A DNA stretch of 64,000 nt. It comes from Phoronis australis. Taxonomy: Eukaryota > Animalia > Phoronida. The stretch is taken from the NCBI GenBank assembly GCA_002633005.1, contig NMRA01000020.1, forward strand, positions 546,673-610,672, in the 5' to 3' direction. The notes under the pieces were generated by a model. That model did no database searches, had not been told where the DNA came from, and saw only the letters and a list, made by a program, of their open reading frames with translations. The position numbers and the translations under genes are program-made. Of this stretch, positions 2,101-48,260 are shown in pieces. The first letter of the stretch is position 1; every line of letters starts with the position of its first letter.

Positions 2101-2429
2101 GCGGCTGCCTGGCACACAATCACAGAACAAGGTGGTTGGGCTGAAATCGTTACTGAACCGGTAGGATACGGAGAGAAAAGATTTCGAAAAAATCGAGTTT
2201 TAAAAAGCTTCTGTGGCCTGGTCATAAATACTGGTTAGTACCGAGGGACTGGAATAAAAAATCATTTAAGGACTGTATTGTGATTACATGTCCCTCAGTA
2301 ATGCACCGGGCATTCACGGTCATAGCCCTACGGCTACGGTGGTCATTTGAGTCGTATTATTTCTGTGTTGCTGCCAATTCCTATATTAAAATAAAGCTGG
2401 ATGTTTGAAACTAGTGCCTGCTTGGCGTT

Positions 2430-10094: not shown

Positions 10095-13614
<3,520 letters not shown>

Positions 13615-13660
13615 CGTGTAGTTATAGTTCGCCGTCATCCAAATTCGTCAGGTTATGATG

Positions 13661-16078: not shown

Positions 16079-19421
<3,343 letters not shown>

Positions 19422-19471
19422 TGTGATGACTACGCTAGGTAGGTTTTGCGATATCCATTCTATGCGGCAGG

Positions 19472-21104: not shown

Positions 21105-21446
21105 TTTTAATCTGCCATTAATTGGGTCACGTACGGTGACCATGTCTTTTTAATATAATTTACCGAAAAACAAAGGTAGGTTGACACCAAAAAATAATAG
21201 TATCAATAACATGACCAAGTTTAATTTAGCATAGATGTGCAGGAAGAGATATCGAAAACTTGCGTTTTCGTTTTATGCATTTTTCCTATTAAAAAGCTTC
21301 TCATGCAAGAGTGGAACATTTCGAAAACAAAGAGAACAGTGTAGAGAATAGTATCTTAAGTTTCATATGAATATACTCTTGATCAGCCATTTCTGACATA
21401 GAATGTTCCAAAGTTAGCCAAATTTGGACATTTTTCTTAGGTCCCA
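21105..21446. repeat. Interspersed repeat copy (family member also at about 31895-32290)
   Basis: Shared blocks TCTGCCATTAATTGGGTCA, GTGGAACATTT, GATCAGCCATTTCTGA and AAGTTAGC.AAATTTGGACATTTTT appear in the same order at both loci. Confidence 0.75.
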
Positions 21447-23395: not shown

Positions 23396-26300
23396 TCACG
23401 AAGCCAATTGACTTTCTTTGTATAGCCGACTAAACCTTCCCAGTGTCCATATTGGGAACACATTTCTATAACTCGTGTAACTGATTGCACAAGACTTGTT
23501 GAAGACGCCACTAATATTCTCCTGTGGCCAATCACCATTGGACAACTGACGGCTAATGAGCAGCTGGATACCACGTTCTATCACAGCTAAATCAGGGTAC
23601 CTGAAGGAATGATTATATCATGATTATGCTAGTATTGCAATTTTATTGTAACACTTCATGACTGTGTCTTTCTATCCCGTTTTTGCAACTAAACCAAACC
23701 CTATCACAACGTTCATGTTCTGTTGTTATCATCATTGTCTTATTTTGACTTAGCATGCATAACATTGGTGACTCGTACTGACACTAGTCATTTGAATTGA
23801 CCACCAATACATTTACATACCTGACAGACATCAAGGCTAGCAGTGCCCAGCAGGTGTTGACCACCTGTGATTCTTCAGATTGAACATACTCCCGACGTTC
23901 ACATGACTCAAAATTTTCACCCCATCCACCGTCCTCCATCTGCTTACTGACCAGAAACTGACAGGCTTTCTTCACTACATGGTGAACATCCCTGTGGTAA
24001 CAAGTAGACATGGCGTTCACAAAATATTGTTGTCATGACAACATAGGAAGTGTTGATGATACATTTAGACCATTTATTAGTGCTTAAAATACTTAAGGGT
24101 AAGTTTTACTGATTGAATTATACTAAGTATATTATACTCACTGGCGTAAACAGTGGGACAGGTTATAGCCCCTCTTGTCATTTTTAACACCTGATCTCAA
24201 CAATTGCTATGCTTCATTGCTCGGCTGATCCATCACTTTATGCCCTTCCTTCAGAATGTTGTTGAACCTTTTTAGTAAAGCTACTGACTAATATAAACTA
24301 CCATCCCCATATGGGTAGAATACATATACAGACTCTCAACATAAGGTTGCTGGACACAACAAAAGTCTTACCCATTGTCTGTATATTTTTGACCCATACA
24401 ACTAAATGCTTCCAGACCAAACCAAGCACCGTAAGTGAAACATACACCCCAAGACCTGCAAAAATAATTCACACAATTAACATGAATTGAAATCTATAAG
24501 GAAAAGCAAATTATTACAAAACGCAAGAGCAGGAACAATGCAGAGCGCTGATATCCATCATTTGCGTAGCATGCGGCACAGATACAATTGATGATCATTG
24601 ATTAAAATATTCCCACAAGAGGGAGAAAGAGGCGCAAAGCAAATCTCCTGTATTCCCCTCAATATAAACACACTTGTTACTCTTCATCATGATTCTTCAA
24701 GCAGTTTGGTGGAGGGCGGCAGAAGACATAAGACACTAAAATGATATAAAAAGCCACTAGGATGCACTGCGTAGGTCAAATCTGTCTGTATCAAGGTAAG
24801 CGCCTTTGTTTCCTTTATGTTAACTTATTTGCCAAAATTTCATGAACACCCGTCAATGCACTTAATGGTAGAAATCATGGCAAATGCAGAGAAAATCCTA
24901 ATTACAACTTAAGGGGACACCACAGATATCAGTTGATTTCAACAATGTGAAAATCCATCACGAATTTAGAAGTTATTGTTCCACAGGCAAAATACTTCCA
25001 CTAGGAGGTACTTCTGTAGTCGGTAGGTTGCACAGAATGCATCAAATTCATCAGCAAATGGGAAGGTATACCTTATGTGCCAAATTTCATGAAAATCTAT
25101 CAAGGAATCTTGATGATGCACACTCAGGCAAAACGTAAAAAACTAAAATTGCCACAAGGGGACACAGCAGTAGTCAATTTGTCTGAAATCCGTCATCATT
25201 CATTGTAACATTGAAGGAATCCACTTGCCAATTTATACACAAATCGTACCAAAGATTTAGGAGATACAGAGACAGACGCCAGACAGAGATGGCAGCAGTA
25301 TGCTACCACATTATGTGGGCACACAAAATTCAATCAAATTTATTTTATTACCAAAGTATTTCACGTTGCATTCCTGAAAGTACTTACCCTTCCCATGATC
25401 CATCTGGTCGTTGTTTTCCAGTTATATAGTCCAATCCATTGGCAAGAACCTTCTGAATGTCATCTTTACGGTAGTTGCCATGGTGATCCATGAAATGCCT
25501 CAACGACTGCATGATGGCAGAGGTGCACTCAACATAAGTGTAATCTATCATAATGTCACCTGAAAACAAAAAGCACATTGTGAAGACACATTTAATGACC
25601 AACGCGAATCATTCAACTTGATTGACGCAAACACAAAGGCAATAGCAATGATATAAAATGGCTAACATTCAACGTAAAATCATGCTAAACCAGAGCACTT
25701 TTAAACAAAACAAAAATAAGTCTGATGTAATATGATAACTATTTTCAAACAGATGTACAAAAATACACAAGAAACGTATAACTAATTACATACTCATGAA
25801 AGATGTACCCTATCATGCTACCAGTAAAGCAGGATTTTGTTTACATTTTGTTGAGAAAGTTGTCAGTGAAAACAAAATCCCATTTTTCTGTCATATCGAG
25901 TGCTACAAAAGGTCAGTAATCGGTGAACAGTTGAATTATTCCATATGACGATTTCGTCATCATAATCATTATAGTTGCTGTTAGAAACAATGGCTGACAT
26001 GAATACCACCACAACCATAGCTTAACTTAATAAGTACTTACCAAACACTTCTGAAGGGTTCAACAACTCCAACATATGACCCCCACGCTTTAGTTCATAG
26101 GTGGCAACACCTCCATCATCCTTGTTTACATAACTTAGTAACTGAAAATAAAAGTAATGAAAACCTTGAGTAGCCAGTCTACAATTTTAACATTCCTGTT
26201 AATTCACACATGCAGTCAAACCATAAAAAATACAGAGGCTTCTAAGACAACGACTTACCACATCAACGGCCTGTTGTAGCCTTTCCTCAGGGACACTTTG

Positions 26301-29300
26301 TTCAAGGTAGGGGCAGTTTTCTTGTAAGTACATGAGGCCTTTCAAACCCTCAGCAGTGCAGTCCCCAACTATCCAACCACAGTCAAGAGTACTGAATGGG
26401 AAACCACCCTTGAAAATAAATTTTAGGTTACTTATTACATTAAAGAATTACATAACTGTTTACTGTTAACCACTGTCTTGATAAACCACCAGAACTCAAA
26501 GCTACAACAAGCCTGCACAGAGTCAAAGAAACCAAATTTTGATAAAGACCACTTGTTTAGTTTATTTTCAACATTTAGGCTTTGACCCACGTGTTATATA
26601 AAATTTACAGGATAACTCTGAGCAGCATGTACCTGAGGGCAATTAGATTAATCTGAGCAGTAGGCTTCAACATTTTCATTTAATAGCTTTATTACAAATT
26701 TATTTTTATTTGGTTCAAGCCAGCACCACTCAGGTATGAATGCAGTTCTCAGAGAACAGTACTTTTTAAAAACACAATATGAAATGATATTCATCTTAAA
26801 TTAGGGACACACAGAAAAAAACACACGGTATTTTTGGTCCACAAGAGCATGTCTACCATTCTCTATCATTAACTTATGATTGGAGCAATGCAATTTAGCC
26901 GTAGCTGCTAAAAAGAAATATGGAATATCACACAACAGATAGGATTCCATTTCAAAATCAATTTTAAATGAGGAATATGTATTAAGTTTTGAGCTATTCT
27001 CCACAGCAAAGCTTCAATCTTCTAAAAAACAATATTTAATTTGCTGCTCAAAAATTACAAGAACAGATGCTTCGCGGCCAACTCCCTGATTGTGCCATAC
27101 AAATCCAAAACCATAGCTTTGAAGCGAATTCCTAACAGATGACACCCAATTTTTCCTACCAGCCTCATCCAATGTGCCAAGCTTGTCATAAACTGATTTT
27201 TAGATTTCAATGTGCTGGCATTTTCAACAATTTAAACCAATATTTGATCAGTTTCAAACATCTTCACAATAAATTGGATATCTTCCCAGTTCTCCCAGGA
27301 CAGCATGATTTGAACAGTTACTTCCAACTCTCAGCAGTTGTTTACAGATTGGATGTGCTCGACACTAGTATATTCTTTAAATCCCCATAGCTAATGACTG
27401 GGCATACCATTTCATCAAAAATCTTGAGTGCAATATGCGGTGAAATTAAATCATTCACATTTTGACTGGACGTTTAATTTGAAAAAATCGCTTTCTGGTG
27501 AGACAAAGTTTCCATAGGAGTAAGGCAAATACCCACGGCAGGTACTTATCAATTTTGTCATTCTCAAAATATCATTTTTCATATTTTCCCAATGGTCTGC
27601 CTTTTCTAAATGCCATTATTTTTTGTTTTTTTTAAGGTTGACTTTCATACCAAAATCCTGACAGTATTCATGCAGAACGTTAATTTTTTGCTGTAATTTA
27701 AATGCTGTCTCTGCACAACCAACCATATCATCAGCGTACAGCAAAATATAAATTTGAGGTACATCCTCATTTAAGACCGCCTGACAACAATAACATTGAC
27801 CTCAAGTTGTTCCTTACTCAGATAAGAAGTGATTTTTGGTCTTGCAAAGAGCTGACAGTTAGTTGTTCCTTGAAACTATGGCCTGGCGAATAAAATGACA
27901 CGCCGTAACTGAGCCTCACTTTCTTAAGCACAAGACCAGAAATCATACCTGTGTTGACTAAGGCACAATCTGAGATCAATTTCATAAAATCTTAAGTACC
28001 ATACTTTAAATCGCCATACAGACGGGGTACAGAATTGGCATTATTTAATCAAAGCACACTATTTAGTCATTCTGAAGCGTTTCCAAGATCCAAGGCTCAA
28101 AAAGCGATTGTGTTTTGTGGACAACAACTAAAAACGTAATCTAAGATTGACAAGATTTAAACTACAATGCTCTTCTACCTTGTTCGGATGTCTATAATAT
28201 CTTTCATAATCCGGAACATTTTCTTTGATTTGCGTAAAATCTAAGAACTTGTGTACTTCTCTCAAACAGGATTCAAACTCCTTGCTTTCATGGGCACCAG
28301 CCTACAACAGAATCAGAATTAAGTAACTATTACCCAGAATGCGATGAAGATTTTTACAAATGTACAAAACTGTAATACTAAATAATCCAAGCATATGAAC
28401 TATTAGAGAAATTAGCTAATTAAAAGTATGCACACATAATAACCAAAGCAAAATTGAAGAAATGCAAATTATTGTTTAACATAATACTAATGAAAGCTTT
28501 TCTGCTGCAAACCGATCTACACTCATCTGCTTTACTCTCTGATGATTTCCTTCCAACAAGACTAATGTCAAGCAACTTCACCAAACTTTTTTATGAATTA
28601 AGAGTGAAAAGACAAATTCATGGAGGGCTGCAGTTTATGAAACATTCCTAGTTAAGGCACGTATCTCAATTGATGAAACTGTGTGTGTGTGTTCTATAAA
28701 CTGGAACTTGGTTTTAAACTGCTATACAGTAAAAATTCTGATCATCCAAATTCCCGAATTATGATCATCCTTAATGTTACGCACTAAGAGGAAACATGAA
28801 AAAGTTGTGTTGTGAGCTAGTTTTGATGATTTTACGAATTGCCAAGTCTATTTTCAGACTCTGTTGATACAAAAATGCAGTGTCCAAAATTTGAGAAAAA
28901 TAAATGCCAAAGTTGACCGCGTTTAATCTTCAGAATCAAAAAATTAAATTTCTCCTTCAATTTACGTGCACCAACTAGACTGTTCCAAACTAGAGACTTT
29001 TTACCTCAAGCGTACCTCAATAAAAGCCTGTACAGCAAATGAAGTGTCCCACAACTGTGAACCATTAGTTCCTGTCATCTTCATGCCATCCAATCCAATC
29101 CTGAAATGTTTTTGTACCACAAACAATAATTATTTTCAGTGTAAAATATTTCATGTGTTTAGCCTTAACACATTCTCTCAAATCTATATCAAATTAAGTT
29201 CATGGATTTATTTGTGAGTTTTAGTTGACAGTTTTATTGATGGAGCAAAGATTTGAAACAATTGCATTGCATTGAAATGTTGGTTGAAGGCCAGTGATAT

Positions 29301-32300
29301 TTATATGTTTTAAGTACTAACTAACTTACAATTTTAAGGACATGATCTTAAAGGCAAGTTAGTGTTCTTGGCAAAGAAAAAGCGTACAGCAATTTAATAT
29401 CCACAATCGAAATTGATTTTATGGTAATTGTCAACCTTCGTTTAGTCCTTTCGAGTTTCACCAAATAAATTTTCAACTGTTCATTGTCAACTGATAAACA
29501 AATTTTCTAATTTAAAAATACCTATCAAACTAAAAGCAGTCTTTTTGGCGCCATCAAAATCCTGTTAAAAAACTAAAATCTTCATTTTTTGACAGTAGAT
29601 ATTTTTGTTAAATTAGAATTTTAATAAAAAATCTGACACACTGTGTCTGTACAACAGCCATAAAATGAGAGAGCAAAATTAAAAACTTTCCACAAATTGA
29701 TCCACCTGCTGAAGAGTGACTGATATTCAAAACTGCCAAAAGCAGAAAAATTAAACAGTCAGAAAATGGCATTAAAGGATTTTGGTTCACTGAAGTTGTA
29801 GCAATGAAAAGTAAATAAATATGCAATTTCACACAATATCTGAATATTGTTGATACAATGTTTGCAAATTGCATTTGTGAGAAACAACTGCCATCTGATG
29901 AAGATTGGCAATTACCTTCTAAGTGAAACCCGACCATATGTAAAAAGTAAACAGTGTCAACAAGGAATAATGGCATTAAGTACTTTGACTTAAGATGTCA
30001 CCACTCACCACAGGTAGTCCTGTACTCTCTCTTGGTGCTCTTTAAAAGCTGCACATTCTGGGCCATCCACATGCCAACGAACCAACATGTTGATGACTTT
30101 TGAGATCTGTCCAAAACCAATCGGTTGTCATTATTAATATTTCACTTTGGAAGTACTAAACAGGCAACCTTTACAGGACCCATAGCCTTTGACCAGCCTT
30201 ACACAAGCACTAAACAGTCAACCTTTACAGGATCTATAGCCTTTGACCAGCCTTACACAAGCACTAAACAGTCAACCTTTACAGGATCCACAGCCTTTGA
30301 CCAGCCTTACACAAGTTCAAGCTTAAACAATAGCTCAATAGTAGAGTTACCAGAGCAAAGCTCACAGTACTCAATCATGTTTCCTTCAGGGACACTAAAA
30401 GTTAGATCTTCCCCATACCTTCCACCCCTCACAACCACATCAAAGGGTTTTTGTGTTCCTGGCCACTGTGTCTGAATTGATAAAATCAGCTGCGGTGACT
30501 TTTTAATCTGCATTTCGCTATGTACAGCTTGCTATCAACAAAAAAAAATTAGGCCTTTACTTCCATAAAATTGGTACTATAAAATTAATATTCCTTTTTC
30601 AATAGGAATTTGCAGTAATTCTCCTGCAATTTCGCACAAAAATAATCTTGACAAATTGGCCATTTTTCCAGTTTTCAAAGGGTGATTATCTTTTTGCAGA
30701 TAATGGTTATTTTAAAAAAGGTACTTTTAAATTAGGACACCAACACACAGAGACTAAAACGTTCTTGATCTTTACTTAAATTTGCGGAGACATTTAACAA
30801 AATAGAATTTCATTAATTTTGTTGACCATATAGTGTGCTATGTAAATGAAGAATAACGATTCCAAAACCAACAAGAACATCGAAACCAAAAGCAATTATT
30901 CAACATAACACTACACACTGGCCAAGTCAAAAATTACAAGTTCAAAAACTGCTGGAAATGGGAGTCCTATCACAGTAAGAAATATTATGTGACCAATATT
31001 ATGAATTAAGTAAAACATTTTTGTTTTTTATCCAACAAAATACTTTAGGGCAAAATACAGCTTTAAATGTTTTTACTGTCCATGATAAATTCAAAAGCTG
31101 AAAATAAATAAATAAATGTAATTCAGTTGTCAAACACACGCAATGAACACTGCAAGCCATTCAACAGATCTCCACATAGCAGCCATGAAAGAAGTTTATG
31201 TTTCACTTCACTTAATCACACTATACCATTACGAGTAATTACGCCCTATAATAATTAGGAGTGACTAACTCACCGGCCCTATACTAATTCCCTTGGTAAA
31301 TCTGTCATCGGCACAAATGTGGTCGTAGCACTCCGCAAGAGCCTTTTGTCTGATGGTCGAACTGTGGTAGGATTCATATATGTCCAGCATATCTATAAGA
31401 TATGTGATAACAATACTAATATGATAATAAAATGCTTCTCAATCTATTGTAAAATAAATATATACAGAAAATCCAAAATAATAATGAATAAGTAGTTGAA
31501 CTAAAATACACACTAACTCGATATAAACCGTGTAGGACCTTATTGACAAGTTGAGGAGGCAGTGTGGCCAAGTGTGATAGGTGCCTGTTTTTTTTACTCA
31601 AGGTCATGGATCCCACTGAGTAACACTGCTAAACCCCTGAGTCAGGTTTCTAGCTCCTCAGCTCGGTTTTAACTATACATCAATAAAGCACAAAAATGAT
31701 TCCAGGTGTTCAGTGCAATGGGCTCACATGCGTGGCCTGCGTGCGTCTGGCACGTGTACCAGAGCGCCTGCAGTCATTTTTTAAATTGATAAGTCTGCAC
31801 AATTAGAAAAATATGGAGTACAAATTAAACTAACTTTAACTTAAATGTATTTTCTGAAAGAAGTAAGCCTGTAGAAATTGATGTTTGACTTTTTACCAAT
31901 CTGCCATTAATTGGGTCATGTGACAATGTCTTTTTAGTAAAATTTAGCAAAAGAAGGTACATTGATAGCAATAACATGAACAAATTTTTATTGATACGAA
32001 CGTGAAAAATGAGATCTCAAAAAAGCGGTTAGAGCTTTCGAAAATATTACTTCGTTTTCGTTTCATACAATTTAATGACTTTCTTTCATGAAAATCCTAA
32101 AAGTCCTGTTTTTAGATAGCCTGTCATGCAAAAGTCAAGTGGAACATTTTAAAAACAATATCTAATTGCATTTTGAAAAAACAGTGCATAAAGCATGATG
32201 GTATATGAAAGTTTCATACGAATCCGATCAGCCATTTCTGAGATATATGTTCCGAAGTTAGCTAAATTTGGACATTTTTCTAGGGTCCTATGTACTGCCC

Positions 32301-35300
32301 CAAACTAGGGAATTTTCACAGTATTAGAACAACCAACAATCTTGTGACTGGTCACGACAAACAGTACATAAAATACCAAGTGAGCGTACAATATGCAGTA
32401 TCCAACAGCCAGCTGTGAGGTGTATATAGATCCGCCCATGCTACATTATTTCTTTGTGATGGCCAATAGATGGAGTTGTAATCTTCTGTGTATAGTTCCT
32501 GAGAGTATTAAACAAAAATGATTTAATAAGTATTCTGCATTTGCAGTAACAAAGTGTAACATGCCATTTGTTGTGCACACGAAATGATTCAAATTCAAGT
32601 CCCATAAGAAAATACCATTCCTGAGGAGATTTAACTTGACGTCCTCTACTTGGCCCACATTTGACAAGGTGACATTTTTTGCCAACTTTTGACAACACTA
32701 TAGTGATATTATAACTAGTGGTGACAATACCTTGGCCCACATTTGACAATACTAAGGTGAGACTACAACTAACTGTGACAACAGTTTTGTGTACTTTTGA
32801 CAACACTCTGGTGACATTACAACTACCTGTGACAATATTTTTGTCCACATTTGACATCACTAAGGAAAAATTCATTACAATTAGCTGCAACACCAATTTG
32901 TCTACTTTCGACAACACAAAGGTGATACTAAAACTAGCTGTGTCAATATTTTCTAGTAAACGAAAGGACTTTATAGACAGAGGATCGACATCTAGGAGTT
33001 CAACAGGTCTAACTGAGGCATGGGTGTGTGACTGCAGAATCAATGAACAATTTTATCCAACGTCTACCAGTTAGTGCTTTCAAAAATACTGAAAATTCAT
33101 TGATAATAAACATCACAATCTATCACCCTTTAGGAGCCGTCAATGTCAAAAGGACCAGTTGTTAATTTGACCACTTTGAGTTCTCCGCTTGCACATAATT
33201 AAGATTAGAAGAGATTTCCTGCTCTGGAAGAATTTAGAAAACGTTGCTGAAGATTGAACTAAATATTTTTATGCACCAAAACAATTATTGTTGTCAGTCA
33301 AATGAGAACTGCCATAATTGAACAATAGATGCAGCTACAAGTTGGAGCTTAGTGCCTTTCACTGGTGAAATCGCAGGTGCACATTTTAAGCGACTTCATA
33401 CCTTTCTCAACTGCAGAATAAGCTTGTCTTCCTTGGCTGATAGTTTGGCCCCATAACAATATGACATAGGTAAATACACCTGTCGGCAGTGACACCACAG
33501 TCTGGACGAGTGGACAGGGATCCAGCTAGGCAGGATCCTATAAACAAATTTTTAAATTATAACACATTACTTTAAAAGTTATGTAGAGCAATCAGTGCAT
33601 AGTTTACATGCAAAGGGTGTGGTTGAGAGCCCACTCATGAGGAACCCAGTGCATGTAAAAACTGACCATGGGATGATGATCCTCCCACAGTTGGAGTTTG
33701 CTAATGGAAACACAACAGCCCATTGAATTCAGTCCAGCTGCCTGGGCTGCTTGGTCACCTAGTATGTAATGCTTTATGACACCTCCTTCATAAAACTATA
33801 GGTGCCTATTGACTTGGCAACTCAGCCAGATGGCTCTCTATTGTGTTCGCAGGGAATGGGGTATTTTAATTGCCCTTCAATTCACAAATTTAAGTGAGTT
33901 GTGGCTGGAGTTTTCACATGTACTAGGTTCCTGTTGTTTATAAGTGACATGTAGGTGGCCATGTTGCTCAACTGTTCATAAACCAGATTGTATGCTTCCG
34001 ATGAATGAGACTGATCATCTGATTGAAAAGTAAACAGGTGCACAGTGCCGGACAGACAAAGGGGGGTGCTTCCAATCATCCAACACTAAAAAAGAGCCAA
34101 TATGGAGCATTGATACACACCCTGCCACTATGTAAAAATGGCAAAAACACGAGAGGCGATCAGTATTTTAAATGACCACAAGAGGGAATAGCAGTACATA
34201 AATCCATAGCGCGAGAATAGCTAGTGGACGGGGCATAGCAGACCCAGCACCCAGTCTTTTGCTACTTAAAAACATGGGGTCATAGACACTTTTTGAATAG
34301 ATTTCCATCTCTTTTTTAATGTGAAGTAGCTTTTCACTATGTGAAGAAACGTGCATTTGCCTTGGGAGTTTTCAATCACAAAATTTGAGTTTCTGATCAA
34401 CAGAAAGGGGATCAGCTTGGCGAATGCTTCATGAGTTAAACTCAAAGCCTTACAAGCAAAGACTAGCAACTGAAAATGGCAGCCACCATGTGATTGGCCA
34501 GCAGGCTAAAAATTTTGAATTAGGGCAGAAAATCCACTGTTTCTAAAGTGAAGATTTCTCGGTACAAGTGGCGCAAGAGTCCTGCATGCTTCCACTTACC
34601 ACATCTCTGGAAACAAAGTATGCATGCCCTGCCAACTGTAACAGTTAAGAACAGCCAACCAGAACTTTCCCCACGATGGAATGGCCGCGGCACCACCTGA
34701 GGAGCAAGCAAAGTTTGGACAGGAATTAACTGAAAAACTGGAGATTTGAAATTCACTAATCAAAATAAAAAACGCCCCCACTCACGTACTCTAGTATCAT
34801 ACTTTAAAACCATAATCATTGATTCGCAGTGAATTCTATGCTGCCACTCATATACTTACAGAAATAATTATGGCCCAATTTCCACAACATATCAGATAAA
34901 AATTTTCATTAGTGACATCCGTGAAATTGAGAACTAATTTGTGCTTCCACAGTACGCAGGCAATTACTTCTGAATTGATCATGCAGATATGAGCAAAAAT
35001 TATCAGTGACCACAAAGTCATGCTACTCTCATTCTTTCAACAATAACAAATTAACAAGCCTTACCAAAAGAATGTAATAGTTTCCTAGCCTTCACCAAGT
35101 CAGGATCATCCGGGCCCACACCCAACAGTCTCATGACCACATAATTCAAAGCACAGCCGAAGACAGTTGGGGGTCCTTCAATGTGACTAAAAGCACAGTA
35201 TGAATGTGGTAAGATAATGGGACTATTAGAAAAAATGACTTGGATGGCAAGCCTGAGCTTTTTCAGTATTAACAGCTTGACATCTTCGTCAAGCACAATG

Positions 35301-38300: not shown

Positions 38301-39035
38301 TATCTTGACCATAATACTCTAGAGGAGATTTTATGGAGAATTAAAACTACAAGTGTTGAGATCTTTTAGTGCACCAGATAAAATTAAAATTACAAGATAC
38401 AATGACCTCTTACCACTCTAAAATTGATCTTAAATGAGAAGTGATACTTGATGATTACAAAGACAGGTCTCAACTGCTCGAGACCATGCTTGGCAAATAA
38501 AATAACACATTATGACAGGTCAACTTGTAGCCCTGGTTTCAAGTAATAACAAACTGAGTTCTCTCCAACTCCACCGACACATCACATCAATTTTCACCAG
38601 GCGAGAACAGTTTGAAAACAATTTGTATGTGAAAGTAGCTAGTCTATATCAAAGGTTGTTTTTTTGATTAGACCACTGAAATACGAGTCTGCATTTGATA
38701 AACAGCTCTCCTCTGGAATATTCACTAAAAATAGATCAAGTGTTTGCAATGTCTTAATACCAGTGACATATTGAGCTACTCCTTGTGCATGCAGATAGCA
38801 ACAGGAGCCATAATAAAATCACACAACAGAAGTTAATACTAACAGTGTTCAGCCCAAGAGAATGCTTTTCAAGCATAAGTTGTTCTCTGTCTGGTGTTTC
38901 ACCATCTGGGATATATGTCCATGTCTGTCGCCCACCAACATTAGTCAATCGCCACCGAGTCAGGTCAGTAGCTGGTTCTGTCTTGTATGGGCCACCACGG
39001 TTGCGAGCAAGAGTGTTCCTGTACTCAAATGGCAT
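23396..39035 (-). CDS. LSS: Lanosterol synthase (2,3-oxidosqualene cyclase); 17 coding exons, 2211 nt, about 736 aa
   Basis: Exons 39035-38844, 36821-36683, 36082-35974, 35186-35065, 34696-34600, 33537-33402, 32498-32390, 31392-31274, 30106-30009, 29100-29016, 28301-28179, 26408-26259, 26141-26042, 25559-25388, 24455-24372, 23991-23821, 23600-23396; all GT-AG with a continuous frame. Motifs: [33 protein letters not shown] repeats ([34 protein letters not shown]), [15 protein letters not shown], catalytic DCTAE. Confidence 0.97.
26700..27775 (-). mobile_element. 5'-truncated, decayed non-LTR retrotransposon (LINE; RT C-terminal part) in an LSS intron
   Basis: Minus strand near 27600-27770 encodes [40 protein letters not shown](TKIMAFRKG), containing the YADD RT motif. 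The downstream [17 protein letters not shown] resembles the LINE ORF2 C-terminus. Multiple frameshifts and stops. Confidence 0.85.
27797..27980. mobile_element. Small imperfect inverted-repeat element (MITE-like)
   Basis: CTCAAGTTGTTCCTTACTCA..TGATTTTTGGTCTTG pairs with CAAGACCAGAAATCA..TGACTAAGGCACAATCTGAG. Confidence 0.5.
30155..30316. repeat. 54-bp minisatellite, 3 copies, in an LSS intron
   Basis: The unit ACTAAACAGTCAACCTTTACAGGATCTATAGCCTTTGACCAGCCTTACACAAGC is repeated three times. Confidence 0.92.
31895..32290. repeat. Interspersed repeat copy related to 21105-21446
   Basis: Shares the blocks listed for 21105-21446 in the same order. Confidence 0.7.
32650..32950. repeat. Degenerate minisatellite, unit about 48 bp
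   Basis: Recurring TTTGACAACAC..GGTGAyATTAyAACTA.CTGTGACAATA unit; this explains the 200-aa spurious ORF at 32441-33043. Confidence 0.8.
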
Positions 39036-39590
39036 TTTAGATGTCCTAGAAACAGAATTACAATACACATAAATATAAAAGTTTACAGTAGGTAATTGGA
39101 AAAAAGAGTTGGGGAACTGGCCAGACATTGCTGCAAGGTGTTTGTCAGGCATGTTACACAACTTTAGTTCCACAGACAACATTGGTTCCAGATACTAGAC
39201 AATGATAGTTGATACGCGTACCAAAATGCTTTGCGTAATCGAGTGGACACGGTTCTTCAAAGGCAGCATGAAACTTAGCCAACTTTAAGTAAAAAATATA
39301 TATGACAGACTTGACAGCTTTGCACCTAAGAACTTTCATGGAAAATTGTTGTACCCATACATAAAGTTCTGCTAGCAGACCGGTAAACAGGGAATACTGA
39401 AGTGCCAGTCACGCCGAAAGGAGGCAGCACAGACGGAGGCCCTGACTGAGAGACCGTACCGTCTTTGACCTGCCTACAACTGAAGCGCAGTCGAAACCTG
39501 GTCGTAATTTTCGAAGTTCAAACTTTTGTTACCAAAGGCACTAAAGAACTAGAAACCTAAAAATTTTGGGCAAGACAGTCTATGACTCAC

Positions 39591-39650
39591 CTCGAGCAGC
39601 TTACGGCGTTGCCCAGACGATGTCGGCTACGTGCAAAAGAACGGAAAGGG
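39591..39650 (-). other. LSS: Probable non-coding first exon of LSS
   Basis: Consensus donor GAG|GTGAGT at 39591/39590 on the minus strand. The ATG exon has an acceptor (TTTCTAG) giving an exon start at 39045, 10 nt before the ATG, so an upstream UTR exon is needed. The 5' end is not determined. Confidence 0.6.
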
Positions 39651-39960
39651 ATTCCCCAGCCGTAACCTGTTCATAAGGCGACGGAAATCGACCAATCACG
39701 GTTGATGTTAGCAAGATTGGGACTTCTTTGATATTGCTACGCCGAAATATTTTTAATGATTTCACGGATTGAAGCTGTGAAACGACACTAAAAGCAAATG
39801 GAAATTCAATTTATTCGCAATTTTCATCGCCTAGTTCAGTTTTATCCGCTTACCAATTTCGAAGAATACTAAATCTATCCCCACGTGCTACATGCGTGAC
39901 AGCGCAAGAACACTGGGATTCCCTAGCGGTGCTTTCTCTAATCAGGCCATATAGTAAGCT
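39650..39960. promoter_or_regulatory. Putative bidirectional LSS/CYP51 promoter with CCAAT boxes and SRE/E-box-like sites
   Basis: CCAAT at 39692-39696, ATTGG at 39716-39720, CCAAT at 39853-39857. ATCACGGTTGAT at 39695-39706; TATCCCCAC overlapping CACGTG at 39876-39887; GTCACGCAT (minus) at 39892-39900. CpG-enriched relative to the flanks. Confidence 0.65.
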
Positions 39961-40050
39961 TTGGAAGAATTGCATCCCGTTGCTTACCTCTTCAGCAGGG
40001 TTGAATTGTCCAGGGTCTTATCGTTGTGGTCTTTATTTTGGTTGGAAGAT

Positions 40051-43000
40051 ATGGATTCTACTTCATCACTGTTGGAAACTGCTATGAGTAGATATCAGGA
40101 AGCTAGTACAACACAATTAACTCTCTTTACAACGACGGTTTTACTCGCCGCTGCTTTTGTGTGCAAGAAATTTACCGATTATGAAAGCCGGGTAAGAACC
40201 ATGTAAGAGTTTGTTGAGTAGGCCCGCCTACTACGTCAGCTACCCTCGATGTCAACAAATCCTCCCAACTCAAAGTATATAGACATATTCTGTCGATGTT
40301 GATTTCTTTCATTCATTAACAAAGTAAGTCGCTATAATGTTCTTGCCTTGTGTGTGACATACGTTACACTGCTGTGCGTGAACTTGCTTGATCTCAAGTC
40401 TTGATCGCTTCTGCGTGTCCTTGTGTTGGAACTGAATATTCATCATCGATCAGGTGAATTTTTTATTCAGTGTTAAGAATTTTTGTAATTATTGGCCTCA
40501 TGATCACCCATTTTCTCCTTTACCGGTGTCAAATAATCTGAGGTTTATGTGAATCGTTAAATCAATTATTTTTTGGTGAATAATGAGATCTCCAAATTGA
40601 AAAAGATTGGTTAAAATATACGTTATTTTATTAACATGCAATTTGATTTGGAGCTGTGGAAATTTTTGTCATCATGATTGTAATTATTTGAATGAAGTTG
40701 TCAATTAATTTTCCATATTCTCACGCATATGCGATCCTGAGATTATAAGCAAGATTGGAAGTTCATGCACGGCAGCACTTTATTATAGCACCAGTTGGAT
40801 TTAGTAGAGACACAGTTTCATCCTCTCAGTAACAAGCCATTATTCAGTGTTTACCTGGTTCTCTAAGTCATGGTCCACAAAATCCGACCTGTGCCGTGTC
40901 CTTATATTGTCCCTAGCATAGAGCCGGGGGTCTATATATATGCTGAGTGCAACTCACTTTGTAAGCCGTAACCATTGATATATTGTCACCCGGTGACAAT
41001 ACGTGCCTACGTACATGATACAAATTGTCATACTCAGCACATTGTGTTGCCCTGCGTGGAGGTGACAATATGTTTGGGGTGTGAAGTATACATGACGGCG
41101 ATCTGTCGTTCAGCAACTTTTCCAGACGTGAGGGGTTCTGAACGTGCGATAACATCTGGCTCCTTTGTTAACTGCCCAGCACTGCATAACTGTCCGGTAT
41201 GATAACAAGCAGGCCAATTATCTCCCAGGCTTCAAAAGGTTACTGAAACCTGGATTGTCTTAACTTCTGCTGTAGTTGGGTGATTCAAAAGCTAAACATG
41301 ATCAGCATTTGACAAGGAATTCAGAAATGCTATTGGTTTATGTTCAAATATGTTATAGCTTAGCTTTCATTTTTAGCAGCACAGCTCAGTCAGGCTAGAT
41401 ACGATCTGATTGGAGATTAGAGCATTATTATCAAACAAAAGAGAGCTAGCCCTCCAGAATGGAGTTAATCAGTCGTGTAAGATATGGGCTACAGGGGTGA
41501 TCTTCCCAACTTGTTGTTGGGTTATAGAATCGAATAAGTTGGGGGCAACGGAAAAATGCTGTAATGATGAATTGCCCGTATGTTGTTTCAGGGAAAGAAC
41601 TTACCACCCCACATACCTTCGTCAATTCCATGGTTAGGTCAAGCCATCAGCTTCAACCAAAGCCCGATAGACTTTCTTGTTGCAGCCTATGAAAAAGTAA
41701 GTCGACAGAATGATAGTGGGCCACAAATAGTCGGTTACAGGAGTCTCAGTTTTTGATAATCAGTTTGATTCCTGTTATTCAGTCAGAAAATTAGTTCTCG
41801 AAACGTGACTGTTAAATATTGCCTTGTTCCTTTTGGTAGTCCAGTCTATTATGTAAGCTAGGGCATATTAAGCAGAGCTCAGACGAACTTGTTGTAAACT
41901 AATAGTAATAAGTGGGAGAGGCAGCAGCATTTCCTTGTATGATATTTAATTTACTTTTGGTAAATTAGACTTTAATTGTTTTTCTGATGAAGACTGCTTA
42001 TAGCTGTATTTAGCTGCTGTTTAGCTGTTAGTGTTGATATTCTAATAACCAAATCACTTCGGGTTTAAAGATATTCATCCAATCTGGAATTATTTTCGAA
42101 TGAGCCAGCAAATCAAGTCTCAAACTATGCCTACTTGTGTCACTTTTGCAATATTAGAGACGACCAACCTCATACTTTTCTGAAGTGTTATCTTGTTTTT
42201 TTTGTTGGTTTCAATGTTCTAAATAGAAATAAAATTCCATGAACATTAAAAATATTATGACGCCAATTTCATGAGACTAAAATTCAAGTTTGATTTTTGA
42301 TTTTTCAACAACCTAATGAGGGCGAAATGCTACTTTAAGTCTTGTTAAGTGATTTTAGAAAAAATGCTGAAAGCAAAATTAGCCACGACAAAGCAACAAA
42401 AACATTGGATGAGAATGCTTTAGCACTTTTGCCATTAACCTTTGTGTTGACTTACTTCTATATTTTGTGCTTTTGTTTTTTTTGTTGCCAGTATGGTCCC
42501 GTGTTCAGCTTTACAATGGTGGGTAAAACGTTCACGTATTTGGTGGGCTCAGATGCCAGCGCCACATTCTTCAACAGTAAAAACGAGGACCTCAACGCTG
42601 AGGAGGTATACAACAGGTTGACTGCGCCCGTCTTTGGTGAGGGTGTCGCCTATGATGTGCCTCATGCTGTGAGTATTCCTGTGTTTACCCTCTTGTTGCT
42701 CAAGGCATGTCACTAGTGTTGCAGCATCATGGCTTTATTTTATGATGTTTTGCTAGTTCTAACGACAATGTAATTTTCAATGCAGTGACATAAAGGTTAT
42801 GTAGAACCTTATCCAAAATTCTTCATAATCTTTAGTTGATGAATATACTTGTCGTTTAATATTTTATTGACTTGTCTTATGTTCACATGGGTTATTGATC
42901 TTTATCAAGAGGTTGGTTTACACGCACTTTGTTTTAGTTGGCTTGTTGCTATAAAGAAATTGTTTTTCCTTTTTAAATTTACAGTCATCATGGACATTAT

Positions 43001-46000
43001 GTTGTAAATTTCTTGCTCCTTTTATGAACCATGATTTTGTATCGTTTTGATGTTTTTAAGGCTCTTCCTGTTTCAGATATTTATGGAGCAGAAGAAGATA
43101 TTCAAAACTGGTCTCAACATAGCTCGATTTAGACACCATGTCGAGATAATTGAAGAGGAAACCAGAGAATACTTCCAGAGATGGGGCGATGAAGGGGTCA
43201 AAGGTTAGATGCTGAGGTCATTCGCAGCAATGACAAAATTTAGAATTTCTGAAAGACTCAGTTTGATATGCCCTATAAACTATAAATGCCACCACCATGC
43301 CACTGCTGTCTTCTCTGTGTCACTTAATACGTCTTTGTATTTTAGTCATTTAAGATGAAATTCAGAAACGCCTTTGAAGCCGAGCAGGCAATCGTCTATG
43401 TATATATATTTTTTTTTTTCTGGTACATTTTCTGGTTTTAATTTTTGTTTGAGCCATTTAAAGCTGCCATGAAACATGTTCTAAGTGTTAAATATCAACT
43501 TTATTCACAGGTGTATTTGCACTTTCAAAGCAATATTGTCGCATTCTCATCCTTTGTTAGCAATGAAATTGGTTATTGCCTGGAAATCTAGCGACTGAAC
43601 CTAACTTGCTGTGACGACCTACTTAATTGAGCCTGATCTGAACCAATAATAATTCAGTTTTTCTGAGTTAGGCAAGAGACGAGACCAGCTTCGCAACAGT
43701 CAGTGGTCTACATATTAATTTTTTTGACAGAAGGCATGGGTTCATTTTTCAATAGCTGATTTATTTGTCAGAAGAGTTCTAAGGATAACAGTTTTTGGTG
43801 TATTAAACCAGACATTCAGACTGATGTTCATAGGCTTTAAATTATTTTAAACTTTCTTGTTTCATTTTCAGATCTCTTTTCTGCTCTATCAGAGTTGATT
43901 ATATTGACTGCCAGTAGATGTCTCCACGGTGAGTGAAGATGGTCTGATGTCTTGCAGCACATCAGATATGCGCAAGCCTCATAACTGGGCACAAAAAATG
44001 AACAACAAGTGCTGTTAAGTTCAAACATGGTCTCTTTGTCAAATTTTTGTTTTTCCTTTAAGTTAGGATAATTGGCTTAATTAGAATATCAATCCATAAT
44101 CGAATATGAAGCGTTGACCTTATGTATTTATGTATATATGAAATTTACAGTATGTCTTGGTTCAGTCGTGACATAGCTGTCCACTTAATCACTGAAAAAT
44201 GAGTTGAGTGTTTGGCAGTTTCAAGTTAGAACTGCGGCGGAGGTCATCTCAGAAATTCAGTTTTCTTGCTGATAATGTCACTTGAAGTTAATGAATGTCA
44301 TGGTTATAAGTTAAATACAGTGTAGGCCTGCTACATTCCCATTTCCCTGTAAAGAAGCTTATAACTGAATGATAACAAGTTTTTGCAACATGGGGCTCTT
44401 CTTTACTTCAAATTACATTCTTATGTAATCTTTCAGGCAAAGAAGTTCGCTCGTTGTTAGACGAACGTGTTGCCCAGTTATATGCTGACCTGGATGGTGG
44501 GTTTACACCCATGGCTTGGTTACTGCCTGGATGGCTCCCTCTCCCGTCATTTAGGTAATTGAGTCCACCAATCACAGACAGTCGTTGCATTCAGCTGAAA
44601 TCTCGGCATATACAATTGATTGAAATACGGAAATTATTGCGTACTGTCTGTGATGTGAAGTTTACAGTGTAGTGTGTAATGAATCCTGCTCAGTTCTTCT
44701 TCACTTATTCAGCACACAATATGGCTGACAAGTGACATTCTAGTTTGTTTAATTTCTCCACAAAAGTAAAGACTTCAGAGCATTTTAGTCTTTCACAAAC
44801 ATGGATTGTAGTGTATATCAATATTTGCTGTTACTCTTGTTGTTTGCAAAAAATAATCATTCCTTGAAATATGGAAAAATGACCATTTTGGCATGTTTTT
44901 GCGTGAAATAAGTGGAGTATTACCATAGCAACAACTTAACCGAAGCATAGAGGGCTGTTTCAGATCTTGCTTCAATTTTGTAGAAAGCGTGACAAGGCCA
45001 ACATAGAGATGAAGAAGTTGTTTAAGAGCGTCATCGCTAAGCGTCGCGCCACAGGACCCGACGATGACATGCTGCAGACAATGATTGACTGCACGTACAA
45101 GTAGGTCATTGTTCCACAGGGTCATGTTGATCATCTTAAGGACCAGTTATTGGAAGAAAATATAGCCTTTTACCTATTAGTTAATTACTCTGTCTAGGTT
45201 TGTTGGACCTTACTTGAGGATTAGTTTGTATTGCGTTGTACCACTTTAGACCCAGGATCTTTTGATTAGACGGCCATACTACTGGCTTATGAGGAGTATT
45301 TACCTGCGTTACTGTTATTTCTATTGTGGACATTTTTCTTTTTTTAAGTAAATTAATTTTTAAAACGTGGCTTGAAAATCAATTGTAATTGTTAGAATTA
45401 GAACACACTAAAAGAATTGATTTTCATTAGCAGCAAGAACATTAAAACCATAACGACTCAATAAATGTGCATCTAAGGTTTTTGGGGTTGGCCACCTCGA
45501 AAAATACAAAATTCGAAAATGGCACGTGTATGCCGTGGCTCGAGCAGCCTGCTCATTTGGAAACGATGCATCATCATATGAGTGATGTAATGTTTTTAAA
45601 AATCCAAGCCCTTTAGTTTAGAATTCAACATTATTTTACAAATTAATAGCAGTGAAATACCTTTAATTACAAGAATTACACAACATTGTGAAACCAATTC
45701 TCAGCGTTGCACAATTGGCATATCTTGCCGGTAGATGCTCCGTTAATAGGGTACCAGACTTTTTCTTGGTTTCCTAGAAATGGCCGCTTCTTATCTGATG
45801 ACGAAATAGCTGGGCTGATGATTGGTTTATTACTAGCTGGACAGCATACCTCTTCCACTACTAGTGCTTGGCTTGGGTTTTTTATTGCCAAAAATAAACA
45901 GATTCAGGTGAGATTTTAATCATTTAAATTTGTAACATAGTTAATGTGCTAGACATATGCTAGATATATCGTACAAGAGAAAGCAATGCTCATACAAAAG

Positions 46001-48260
46001 AGTGCATTTTGCTTTATGTATAAAGTGTAGCCATGCAAGTGACATAATATAGTTGGGGGTGCTGTGTAATTTTTTGGTAATAGTCACAAGTTTCCTGGAT
46101 TTTGAGAGCCAGTTTGATGACTGTTATTCAATGGAGAAAATGGGTTATCAAAATGTGGGCCCCTTGTAACTGACTATTACCAGTTTTTGAATGAAACAGG
46201 CAGGCTGTGAAAAAGGCAGTATTTGTGCAAATTAATATCTATCTACTAGGCTTTAAGTTGCCGTCTTGTACCTCTTTAGACATTGAACACAAATACCTCG
46301 CTTCAACACAGTGGTCTTCATTTACTATAACCCAGACTAAAGGCAACGTAAATAATTAGTAAACGTGTCCCAAAAGGACCCAGCGTATCTTGTGGTATGC
46401 ATGAAATATTCCTGGTTGTTTCTCTTCTTAGAATGCATTGTATGAAGAACTCAAGACAGCATGCGGTGAAGACTTACCTTCTCTCAACTATGACCACCTG
46501 AAGGACTTGACCTTACTGGACCGAACCATGAGGGAGACTCTTCGTCTTCGGCCCCCTATTATGACTATGATGAGGATGTGTAAAACACCACAGGTCAGCA
46601 GGTTATCTTACACCAGACAGCACTGGGCAGTGTTATTAACGTCTGGATGCTTTGCGCACTAGAAAACGAAGTCTCAAAAATTTTTTTTCCAGATGATCAA
46701 TAACTTGGTTTTTATTGGACCACTCCTTTTACTAGAATTCACCCATTGAGATTTTGTTAAACTGGATTATTGTTACAGTACTAATTTTCCAGAATTGGCA
46801 ATTGAAATCCTGACTGCATTCATTGGAGCATGTTTTTTGCAAGAAAACTAAGGTCATGAAATCTTTGAGAGATATCTCATTAGGTTTTTGAGGTATAAGG
46901 TGGCAATTTAATCGTTGATGAATGAAGCATTCAACCTTCAACTGTTGAAACCACTAGTGGATGCACACGCTTAGAATTACTCATGAAATTTATTATGACC
47001 TTTAGGGTTGAAGTTCATTGGTCTTTGTTGATTTGATAACTAACTAATACCAATGGCAGAGGTAAATTTTAAACCTGTCTAATTTATAATATCGTCCACA
47101 TAAAATAGTGTTCACATTCCTTGAGTGTTCCACTGCGGCTGTGAATATTGCTCTTTTTTGCTTCCAGTTTGTTGGACGTATTTCACTATTAAATAATATT
47201 AAGTTTAAAAACACTACTTTTTACCTACAGAAGGTGATGGGCTATGACATACCTGTTGGACACCAGGTGTGTGTGTCACCTACGACCAATCAGCGAATTA
47301 AGGACGCGTGGGGCGAGACAAATATGGACTTTGATCCTGACAGGTATGTGTTCTTGTTCTTCTTGATATTCAATGTGAGGCCACTGATGCATTGTGGGAA
47401 TGGTTAGTTTCACTCATAAGCATCTTAAATACCTCTAGCTAATCAACGTGTTATTCCCTGTATACTATTAATTTGAAATTGTGGTTTTATTCCCTTCCAA
47501 GAACTTTACTCTTCAAAAATTCCTATTATTAGTTTCAGTGAAATAACTTACAGTCATCTCACTGATAGTATGTATGGCTTACTTATATTGAAAGTCTTTC
47601 TCATTACATATTATGGTAAGAATCAATATCTGCTGCAATCATGATCCATTAACAATTCAAAAAAACGTTTCAGAGTTTATCAGGGTTGAGTAACCCTAAA
47701 ATTATGAATTCAGAAATGGCGCATCTACGCATTGCACGTGATTTGAATTATCACCTGATCGGGCGAGCGTGGAAATGTTTTTAAATCCCAAAGCAAATTC
47801 AATGTTGTCAGATTAACAGGGCCAAATGCAGCTTTAAATAAGAGGTTAGTGTCAAATAAGCCAACACAATTGGGAAATGTAGAGACAATATCGGTCAGCC
47901 CAAATCCCTTCAAAATGGCCATGCCCTCAGCAGCGTGTGCTGGCATCATTCATTCGCGAAACATATTATTTTATGCACGAAATATATCCTTGTGTCCATT
48001 TTGCACTTTCTAGATTCCTGAAAGAATCGGAGGCTCTCAACACCGAAAAATTCTCATACATCCCATTTGGTGCAGGACGTCACCGTTGCATCGGCGAATC
48101 GTTCGCGTTTGTTCAGGTCAAGACGATTTGGGCTACGCTGCTAAAGATTTTTGAGTTTGACCTTGTGGATGGACATTTCCCCAGCATCAACTATGACACC
48201 ATGATACATACGCCTGTCAACCCTGTGATCAGATACAAGCGACGCGCTAAAGTGTGTTAA
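40051..48260 (+). CDS. CYP51: Sterol (lanosterol) 14-alpha-demethylase, cytochrome P450 family 51; 11 exons, 1494 nt, about 497 aa
   Basis: Exons 40051-40191, 41592-41696, 42492-42668, 43077-43203, 43872-43928, 44437-44554, 44984-45100, 45778-45907, 46432-46593, 47231-47343, 48014-48260; GT-AG with a continuous frame. Motifs: N-terminal anchor plus [34 protein letters not shown] (CYP51 SRS1), [10 protein letters not shown] (I-helix), [19 protein letters not shown] (heme Cys). Confidence 0.97.

Follow-up and report, generated by a model that had tools for sequence, protein, structure and literature searches.

A head-to-head LSS-CYP51 gene pair in Phoronis australis, most plausibly a conserved 5'-5' microsyntenic pair of animal sterol genes

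Lanosterol synthase (LSS) cyclises oxidosqualene to lanosterol, and CYP51 next takes off this product's 14-alpha-methyl group. In animals, linkage of genes by pathway is regarded as rare, and the human LSS and CYP51 genes are not known to be linked. In four demosponges, LSS was reported in 2026 to adjoin CYP51, and a sponge cyclase produced lanosterol in yeast (PMC13483135, section 2.6). These are the same two enzymes as described here, adjacent and conserved among species; the accessible portions of that text are silent on orientation, distance, promoter and RNA start, and do not carry the link beyond sponges. For echinoderms, a 2022 figure legend (10b) names a single 'genomic neighborhood' panel for the OSC and CYP51 genes, implying that they are linked, and the available passages of that paper carry no statement of adjacency or orientation (PMC9236903). 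The same source describes the loss of CYP51 and a duplicated cyclase (LDS, PS) in sea cucumbers, whereas both genes are intact in the locus presented here. The original prediction held that metabolic clusters are unusual in animals; being stated for sponges and implied for echinoderms, the LSS-CYP51 adjacency is less so than was assumed, and the link itself is therefore not new. The breadth of the pairing, its fixed orientation and its promoter anatomy were not found in the main texts of the literature searched.

Other described systems share parts of this arrangement. Ancient 5'-5' pairs such as Hspd1-Hspe1 and HADHA-HADHB, discussed in 2012, likewise consist of unrelated, functionally linked genes with a gap of <1 kb that is kept across phyla (PMC3514665). 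The pairs named there survive in human, whereas LSS-CYP51 does not, and the examples given are subunits of one complex rather than consecutive enzymes. LSS, CYP51, lanosterol and sterol are absent from the main text of that paper, the supplementary pair list of which could hold them. Bacterial ERG24-CYP51-LSS clusters (PMC9531527) likewise keep CYP51 and OSC close together, and in the oat avenacin cluster the OSC Sad1 lies beside the CYP51-family P450 Sad2 (PMC2776167). The oat genes are described as duplicated, neofunctionalised paralogues ~70 kb apart, root-specific and dedicated to a defence compound (PMC2776167), whereas those studied here are canonical sterol orthologues ~1 kb apart. Compared with the demosponges, the present locus is bilaterian, arranged head to head and has mapped RNA ends.

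The window, a stretch of 64,000 nucleotides from Phoronis australis, carries LSS on the minus strand and CYP51 on the plus strand. Homology-guided splicing gave an LSS coding sequence (23396..39035, minus strand) of 17 coding exons and 736 aa, with exons 1-9 at 39035-38844, 36821-36683, 36082-35974, 35186-35065, 34696-34600, 33537-33402, 32498-32390, 31392-31274 and 30106-30009, and exons 10-17 at 29100-29016, 28301-28179, 26408-26259, 26141-26042, 25559-25388, 24455-24372, 23991-23821 and 23600-23396. The spliced frame is full-length with 0 internal stops, and every intron is GT..AG. The protein is 76% identical to Lingula LSS and 66-68% identical to two vertebrate LSS proteins, and the Pfam domain SQHop_cyclase_C was found in it. 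Human residues H232, T381, F444, C449, V453 and D455 (PDB 1w6j numbering) are all kept, the catalytic DCTAE aspartate D455 and H232 aligning with the human 1w6j protein; T381, C449 and V453 are lanosterol-type residues. Phenylalanine at position 444 has been described as the lanosterol-type state of the cyclase (PMC9236903). The gene is an intact orthologue of animal lanosterol synthase and is predicted to make lanosterol.

The CYP51 coding sequence (40051..48260, plus strand), spliced in the same homology-guided way, has 11 exons and 497 aa, with exons 1-6 at 40051-40191, 41592-41696, 42492-42668, 43077-43203, 43872-43928 and 44437-44554, and exons 7-11 at 44984-45100, 45778-45907, 46432-46593, 47231-47343 and 48014-48260. 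It contains 0 internal stops and its introns are all GT..AG; the exon-2 acceptor was set at 41592 from RNA. RNA reads join across five introns (23-80 reads per run), and intron 1 shows up in loose read ends. Identity to bilaterian CYP51s is 65-69%, exon 3 matches PDB CYP51 chains (E 8e-29), the I-helix AGQHTS and the 10-letter heme loop match Capitella CYP51A1, and the B'/C-region signature is present. On this evidence from the letters, CYP51 is an intact orthologue of the animal enzyme and a predicted 14-alpha-demethylase.

Stranded RNA-seq from three runs with the same species label, mapped over 29000-48500, demonstrated that the two genes are transcribed outward from 5' ends ~330 bp apart, these ends being lower bounds and not CAGE positions. 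LSS has a non-coding first exon (39591..39656, minus strand) with its 5' end at 39656 at least, into which joint reads extend by <=66 letters, and RNA depth drops to ~0 beyond 39660. This exon is joined to the coding part across a GT..AG intron in the 5' UTR (39046..39590, minus strand), which ends 10 nt before the ATG and is removed in 9, 7 and 14 reads in the respective runs. A minor alternative 5' exon of LSS (39355..39403, minus strand, edges approximate) is supported by 2 joint reads in one of the three runs and by 3 in another, with its donor placed from sequence. The 5' UTR of CYP51 spans 39988..40050 (plus strand), and its main 5' ends cluster at 39988-39990 in 2/3 RNA runs, with 5 molecules ending there in run X5 and 6 in run X7. 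The divergent starts, ~39656 and 39988-39990, therefore lie <1 kb apart. Exon depth in these runs, only three in number, was about 20/20/27 for LSS and 64/44/77 for CYP51. Splicing and stranded RNA thus bear out the original prediction of intact, divergent genes with ATGs at 39035 (minus) and 40051 (plus), 1016 bp apart, and the RNA also confirms the predicted intron of the LSS leader, the last exon base at the donor being 39591, 460 bp from the CYP51 ATG.

An artefact of assembly could produce a false adjacency, and the contigs of run X1 do leave a 53-bp hole in the gap, at 39818-39870; the DNA runs X1-X3 may also come from the window's own source sample. However, single contigs of two other runs bridge both start exons (X2, 38629-40378; X3, 38814-40378), the X3 contig having a depth of 43, like other unique pieces, and unrelated animals share the same layout. 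Misassembly of the junction, one of the refuting outcomes named in the original prediction, is thereby rejected, with next to no probability left to it.

Two cathepsin-like genes and one coiled-coil gene flank the pair in the window. Inspection of the listed ORFs turned up no further sterol gene. In the plant and fungal sense, a biosynthetic gene cluster comprises three or more non-homologous pathway genes, and the window falls short of that number. The locus is a two-gene pair within the window and not a full cluster.

The same layout was found in three metagenomic animal contigs (L001, L020 and L026), in which CYP51 is the immediate upstream neighbour of LSS on the other strand and the ATGs are separated by 651, 945 and 919 bp. 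Head-to-head orientation with a short gap is therefore seen in 4/4 DNA cases including the window (ATGs 651-1016 bp apart), all of them protostome-like by tree or similarity. L001 groups with annelids (CYP51 tree, SH-aLRT 85), L020 with the bryozoan Watersipora (LSS tree, 99), and L026 is sister to L020 (99); the trees held animal sequences only, and L027, being truncated, was omitted from the exon-1 tree. A third look-up for loci returned no further pairs.

Database numbering extends the pairing to other phyla. LSS and CYP51 are consecutive in Lingula (XP_013417878/877, on one 271,973-bp scaffold), Ptychodera (XP_070566081/082), Branchiostoma belcheri (locus tags Bbelb_066990/067000) and B. 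lanceolatum (CAH1238669/670 and XP_066301414/415), and are consecutive or 2 apart in two hybrid amphioxus assemblies. For Lingula, Ptychodera and two amphioxus species, consecutive numbers within a single scaffold point to adjacency in either orientation. As both protein names start with 'lanosterol', an alphabetical artefact was considered and rejected, because positional 'hypothetical protein' tags are also consecutive, LSS comes before CYP51 in some species and after it in others, the scaffolds agree in length, and the numbers lie far apart in species that have the genes on different scaffolds. Assuming about 20,000 genes, we estimate that two given genes would be adjacent by chance in ~1 in 10,000 genomes; the pairing is seen in several phyla. 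Of the groups that the original prediction proposed for survey, brachiopod, hemichordate and amphioxus gave the adjacency, and most gastropods, among the molluscs, did not.

When the exon edges of the window were placed on L001, AG was found at 15/16 and GT at 14/16 positions in LSS, and AG at 10/10 and GT at 8/9 positions in CYP51. The shared intron positions support vertical descent of the pair. The flanks are not kept: there were 0 tblastx matches of the window flanks in the 27 metagenome loci, the comparison reaching only a short way past the genes in L001 and L026. A recent import, or a remnant, of a bacterial sterol operon could be suspected, since CYP51 lies within 10 kb of OSC in 46/80 bacterial loci and sponge symbionts are described as carrying ERG24-CYP51-LSS operons (PMC9531527). 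The bacterial clusters are, however, intron-less operons with about 1.3-1.5 kb between the two genes, co-directional in 42/46 cases, and the 4 head-to-head ones have gaps of 1.1-2.0 kb. Bacterial OSC is 32-49% and CYP51 32-38% identical to the Lingula proteins, whereas identities between bilaterian animals are 65-76%. Of the 16 + 10 coding introns of the window genes, most are common to another animal, and the nearest rows of these genes in quick trees, which held animal sequences only, are the orthologues of Lingula and Lineus. Such an import is therefore extremely unlikely, and the argument against it in the original prediction is upheld on the shared introns, the low bacterial identity and the animal tree neighbours. 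A far older, pre-animal origin of the link may be envisaged.

The link is not universal. Among 19 species in which both genes could be traced, 10 have them unlinked (7 gastropods, 3 vertebrates), and 5 have them on one chromosome and were scored as neither linked nor unlinked (Glandiceps, Lineus, Liolophura, H. asinina and B. floridae). A jump in RefSeq numbers is no proof that the genes are apart, because those of B. floridae are 44 apart while its congeners have consecutive ones. Echinoderms, lamprey, named annelids, Amphimedon, Trichoplax and tardigrades yielded a single gene only and do not enter the pair counts. No CYP51 is seen in 24/27 metagenome loci, of which 18 are too short, 4 are borderline (2.9-3.5 kb) and 2 are informative (L008/L009, with identical exon 1 and 10 kb upstream); in these two, from an annelid-like clade, a CBS-domain gene takes the place of CYP51. 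The link is thus broken in 7/8 gastropods, 3/3 vertebrates and one annelid-like clade, and separations have been fixed at least three times. As many lineages are unlinked and have both genes, the link is dispensable.

Alternatively, selection for co-regulation could have joined LSS and CYP51 separately in each of several lineages, as happens in plant clusters; OSC and CYP51-family genes were co-recruited independently in oat (Sad1/Sad2), and OSC and CYP51 cluster in bacteria (46/80 OSC loci). We consider this very unlikely, because orientation, distance (651-1016 bp) and CCAAT orientation are alike in 4/4 DNA cases, and because one origin with few losses accounts for the presence of the pair in sponges, in two phyla of deuterostomes and in three or more spiralian lineages. 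B. glabrata and H. asinina, moreover, still carry LSS and CYP51 on the same chromosome, which is what local breakage of an old link would leave. Between the two options of the original prediction, recurrence in several phyla speaks for an ancestral microsynteny lost in vertebrates and against a lineage-specific assembly.

The ~330 bp between the main RNA 5' ends (39657..39987), bridged by single contigs, are likely a bidirectional promoter and are treated here as a candidate for one. A full CCAAT/NF-Y box, for which the consensus is taken by us to be RRCCAATSR, lies at 39690..39698 (plus strand), pointing to CYP51, 361 bp from its ATG. The box occurs in the same orientation in 4/4 linked promoters, 262-375 bp from the CYP51 ATG, with a chance expectation of 0.04-0.14 per promoter. 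It also occurs <=3 kb upstream of LSS in 7/13 checked loci showing no CYP51, and therefore marks the promoter and not the LSS-CYP51 link. Adjoining it is a tentative SRE-like decamer (39673..39682, minus strand), found in 3/4 linked promoters and never in ~43 kb of background from the window, by a post hoc pattern built from these sequences; the canonical SRE with <=2 mismatches was not above chance in the linked promoters. The nonamer GGGATTCCC has only two plus-strand copies in the window, at the LSS start (39648..39656) and upstream of the CYP51 start (39915-39923), and a partial copy in L026. An E-box, CACGTG (39882..39887), is also present in L001 and absent from L020 and L026, and is not above chance (0.13-0.20 per promoter).

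The pair could be ancestral and yet be kept by inertia, in that two overlapping housekeeping core promoters in a ~300 bp gap would form a very small target and be harmful to break regardless of gene function, with shared sterol regulation being incidental. This would agree with the many lineages that are unlinked and retain both genes, with the commonness of CCAAT boxes at promoters, including the LSS loci without CYP51, with the lack of SRE enrichment, and with the functionally different CBS-domain gene that became the divergent neighbour in the annelid-like clade. However, inertia leaves unexplained why the partner is the next pathway enzyme and why the flanking genes were lost, and the CCAAT box keeps its position and strand from phylum to phylum. 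We therefore judge it rather unlikely.

Our preferred reading of the locus is that of a conserved 5'-5' microsyntenic pair, in agreement with predictions 1-3 for co-regulated ancient pairs as given in section 7 of PMC3514665. Recurrence in several phyla makes it likely that the pairing goes back to the earliest animals and that one shared promoter maintains it. Mammalian LSS and CYP51 are SREBP targets that use NF-Y. We think it probable that this is an ordinary animal pair of LSS and CYP51, likely inherited from the last common ancestor of animals and likely kept by one NF-Y-bound promoter, probably also under SREBP. From the promoter anatomy we infer co-regulation, in which one shared promoter would turn on both genes when sterol is short, so that lanosterol would not be made faster than it is demethylated. 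A break within so short a gap would sever one gene from its promoter, which could be why separations are rare. As a tentative extension, doubtful in its entirety, the module could be older than the sponge-bilaterian split with one SREBP/NF-Y bidirectional promoter balancing the making of lanosterol against its removal ever since the first animals, vertebrates, gastropods and the annelid clade having unlinked it independently, and the loss of CYP51 in sea cucumbers having accompanied the release of the cyclase to saponin scaffolds.

If two successive enzymes of cholesterol synthesis have stayed paired from sponges to amphioxus, they would offer a clean case of old linkage in metabolism. Its ~330 bp promoter, alignable across phyla, could be used to ask when sterol control by SREBP/NF-Y arose, and amphioxus against vertebrates, or brachiopod against gastropods, provide natural comparisons of linked and unlinked states. 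The pairing also gives a practical handle, as one gene locates the other when asking which invertebrates make sterols de novo.

The LSS-CYP51 pair in the window (G+C content 38%) is real, intact and expressed, the identities of the two enzymes being assigned by sequence. Homology-guided splicing bore out the original prediction of intact, divergent genes with ATGs at 39035 (LSS, minus strand) and 40051 (CYP51, plus strand), giving 17 coding exons and 736 aa for LSS and 11 exons and 497 aa for CYP51, with all introns GT..AG and no internal stops. For LSS, protein identity is 76% with the Lingula enzyme and 66-68% with those of two vertebrates; for CYP51 it is 65-69% with bilaterian CYP51s and 60% with that of Amphimedon. 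H232, T381, F444, C449, V453 and D455 of human LSS (PDB 1w6j) are all conserved, and residue 444 decides between lanosterol and parkeol or lanostadienol, according to the accessible text of PMC9236903. The CYP51 carries the I-helix and heme-loop motifs given for Capitella CYP51A1 in the available part of PMC4229089. Quick trees did not place the animal within Bilateria, the closest rows being Lingula and Lineus. High-copy repeats, with contig depth in the thousands, were seen at 40450-40525, 41180-41500 and 31600-32290, within CYP51 intron 1 and LSS introns.

Past the LSS 3' end, on the same (minus) strand, are two tandem cathepsin-L-like protease genes (~10100-13650 and ~16070-19450), with I29 propeptide and Peptidase_C1 domains (Pfam) and exons 76-88% alike. 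Right after the LSS stop, a near-perfect tandem duplication (21183-22800, 818-bp spacing) either arose recently or was introduced by the assembly. Convergent with CYP51 is a multi-exon coiled-coil gene (~49583-61070, minus) with zero Pfam matches, which resembles CCDC148.

For transcription, stranded RNA from three runs under the same species label was used (about one fifth of each, with LSS covered above 29000). LSS RNA was on the minus strand, and its non-coding first exon, whose donor at 39591 had been predicted from the sequence alone, was spliced from there to 39045 in 9, 7 and 14 reads. The LSS RNA reached 5' to about 39656 and CYP51 RNA, on the plus strand, had 5' ends stacked at 39988-39990 in two of the three runs, so the main starts are about 330 bp apart, RNA-seq ends being lower bounds. 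At least five CYP51 introns were supported by RNA among the joints listed. Exon depths were about 20, 20 and 27 for LSS and 64, 44 and 77 for CYP51, three runs being too few for co-expression. Low-level plus-strand RNA was also seen at 39404-39851 (depth 1-8, strongest in run X6), covering the first exon of LSS together with the left half of the interval between the RNA 5' ends, with no joint to CYP51 exon 1 among the joints listed; it could possibly represent upstream starts in the CYP51 direction or antisense promoter RNA.

The junction between the genes, for which misassembly had been raised as a possibility, holds. One DNA run had a 53-bp hole inside the gap, and in two others single contigs covered both start exons. 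As these runs may be the window's source sample, the stronger case comes from the same layout in other animals, and misassembly has next to no probability.

Adjacency, which the original prediction urged should be surveyed, is indicated in four traceable species and recurs in three metagenome contigs, with separations elsewhere. Both proteins were traceable in 19 species by accession numbers and scaffold length, a basis that is indirect and silent on orientation. In four species (Lingula anatina, Ptychodera flava, Branchiostoma belcheri and B. lanceolatum) the two numbers follow one another and the scaffold is shared; the positional tags of B. belcheri are consecutive (Bbelb_066990/067000), the B. 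lanceolatum genes are consecutive in two annotations, and two hybrid amphioxus assemblies, outside the 19-species count, agree with linkage. Another five (B. floridae, Glandiceps, Lineus, Liolophura and Haliotis asinina) have both genes on the same chromosome and were counted neither adjacent nor separated, and in Biomphalaria glabrata they are 651 GenBank numbers apart on one chromosome. Different scaffolds were found in nine: six gastropods (Aplysia, Bulinus, B. pfeifferi, Batillaria, H. rufescens and H. cracherodii) and three vertebrates (Latimeria, Pleurodeles and Eublepharis). In human, LSS is on chr21 and CYP51A1 on chr7. Full-length LSS was also present in the tardigrades Ramazzottius and Paramacrobiotus (P0221, P0225), although most ecdysozoans are not known to make sterols.

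Scanning metagenome contigs with an LSS exon 1 alignment gave 27 loci, three of which have CYP51 immediately upstream on the opposite strand, with ATG-to-ATG distances of 651 bp (L001), 945 bp (L020) and 919 bp (L026) compared with 1016 bp in the window. L001 clusters with annelids in the CYP51 tree (SH-aLRT 85). In the LSS tree L020 joins the bryozoan Watersipora (99), and L026 is grouped with L020 (99). The bryozoan-like CYP51s (L020 1560-1854, L026 6330-6615) sit on long tree branches and have an N-terminal extension that contains a second hydrophobic stretch. Of the other 24 loci, 22 form one clade, annelid-like by a weakly supported tree position. In L008/L009, no CYP51 was found within 10 kb upstream of LSS; the nearest recognised divergent neighbour there is instead a CBS-domain gene (Pfam; ~1250-3530, minus), which resembles an AMPK gamma subunit. 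Four further loci of this clade had no CYP51 match in the 2.9-3.5 kb upstream of LSS, the remaining loci being too short. The window's flanking genes had zero matches in the 27 loci, where little flank DNA is present.

Splice sites in L001 match window exon edges at 15/16 acceptors and 14/16 donors for LSS and 10/10 acceptors and 8/9 donors for CYP51, indicating that both genes were inherited vertically. Common ancestry of the pairing is very probable, and much firmer than co-regulation; that the recurrence reflects repeated independent assembly is very unlikely. In bacteria, 394 OSC loci were found, and 46 of the 80 top-ranked ones have a CYP51-like gene within 10 kb, in agreement with the operons in the accessible part of PMC9531527. 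The two genes are co-directional in 42 of these and head to head in four, all Methylococcaceae (L039, L051, L058 and L074; gap 1.1-2.0 kb). The bacterial CYP51-like genes are 32-38% identical to Lingula CYP51, and import of the pair from bacteria is, if anything, less likely still.

LSS produces lanosterol, from which CYP51 then strips the 14-alpha-methyl group as the following step, and in mammals both are SREBP targets, aided by NF-Y. Probably both genes are served by a single short promoter and the pair has been kept since early animals, with a few fixed separations: such a promoter would switch both on under sterol shortage, and a break within the gap would be costly, favouring retention. 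A full NF-Y (CCAAT) box, consensus RRCCAATSR, is present in all four linked promoters (window, L001, L020 and L026) on the CYP51-ward strand, 262-375 bp from the CYP51 ATG; its chance per promoter is 0.04-0.14 in simulated sequence, and the two bryozoan-like promoters are not independent. CCAAT boxes were also upstream of LSS in 7 of 13 checked loci without visible CYP51, therefore the box indicates a promoter and not the cause of linkage. Canonical SREs were not above chance frequency in the linked promoters. An SRE-like decamer is near the CCAAT box in three of the four, a pattern derived from these very sequences; its distance to the box is identical in L020 and L026. The main rival to a shared, co-induced promoter is inertia, in which two housekeeping promoters overlap within so small a gap that breaks are difficult irrespective of what the genes do, and this we consider rather unlikely.

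PMC3514665 defines the class of ancient gene pairs and describes nearly 600 of them, among which 5'-5' orientation and short gaps are over-represented; LSS/CYP51 is not named in its main text as available, and its supplementary pair lists may hold more. In the demosponge Acanthella cavernosa a validated lanosterol synthase adjoins CYP51, as in three more demosponges (PMC13483135, 2026); the accessible text gives neither orientation nor a wider survey, whereas the window pair is head to head. An OSC genomic-neighbourhood panel has CYP51 drawn in (PMC9236903, 2022), and its figure legend implies that the genes are linked in sea stars and urchins. The available portions of PMC6018497, PMC7947880, PMC4229089 and PMC9652883 do not mention an animal LSS-CYP51 link. 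A pan-animal or head-to-head pair was not found in full-text literature covering few subscription papers, and echinoderm and sponge supplements may hold more. Oat Sad1/Sad2 are paralogues about 70 kb apart, according to the accessible part of PMC2776167.

LSS-CYP51 is an ancient 5'-5' gene pair whose specific link was already reported in sponges. The predicted "sterol biosynthetic gene cluster" stands as a two-gene module, but not as what is normally meant by a biosynthetic cluster. Our analysis extends the reach of the pair to genomes of brachiopod, hemichordate, amphioxus, annelid-like and bryozoan-like animals. It also adds the fixed divergent arrangement, in which the CCAAT box keeps its orientation, the mapping of the RNA starts, and the separate loss of the link on at least three occasions.
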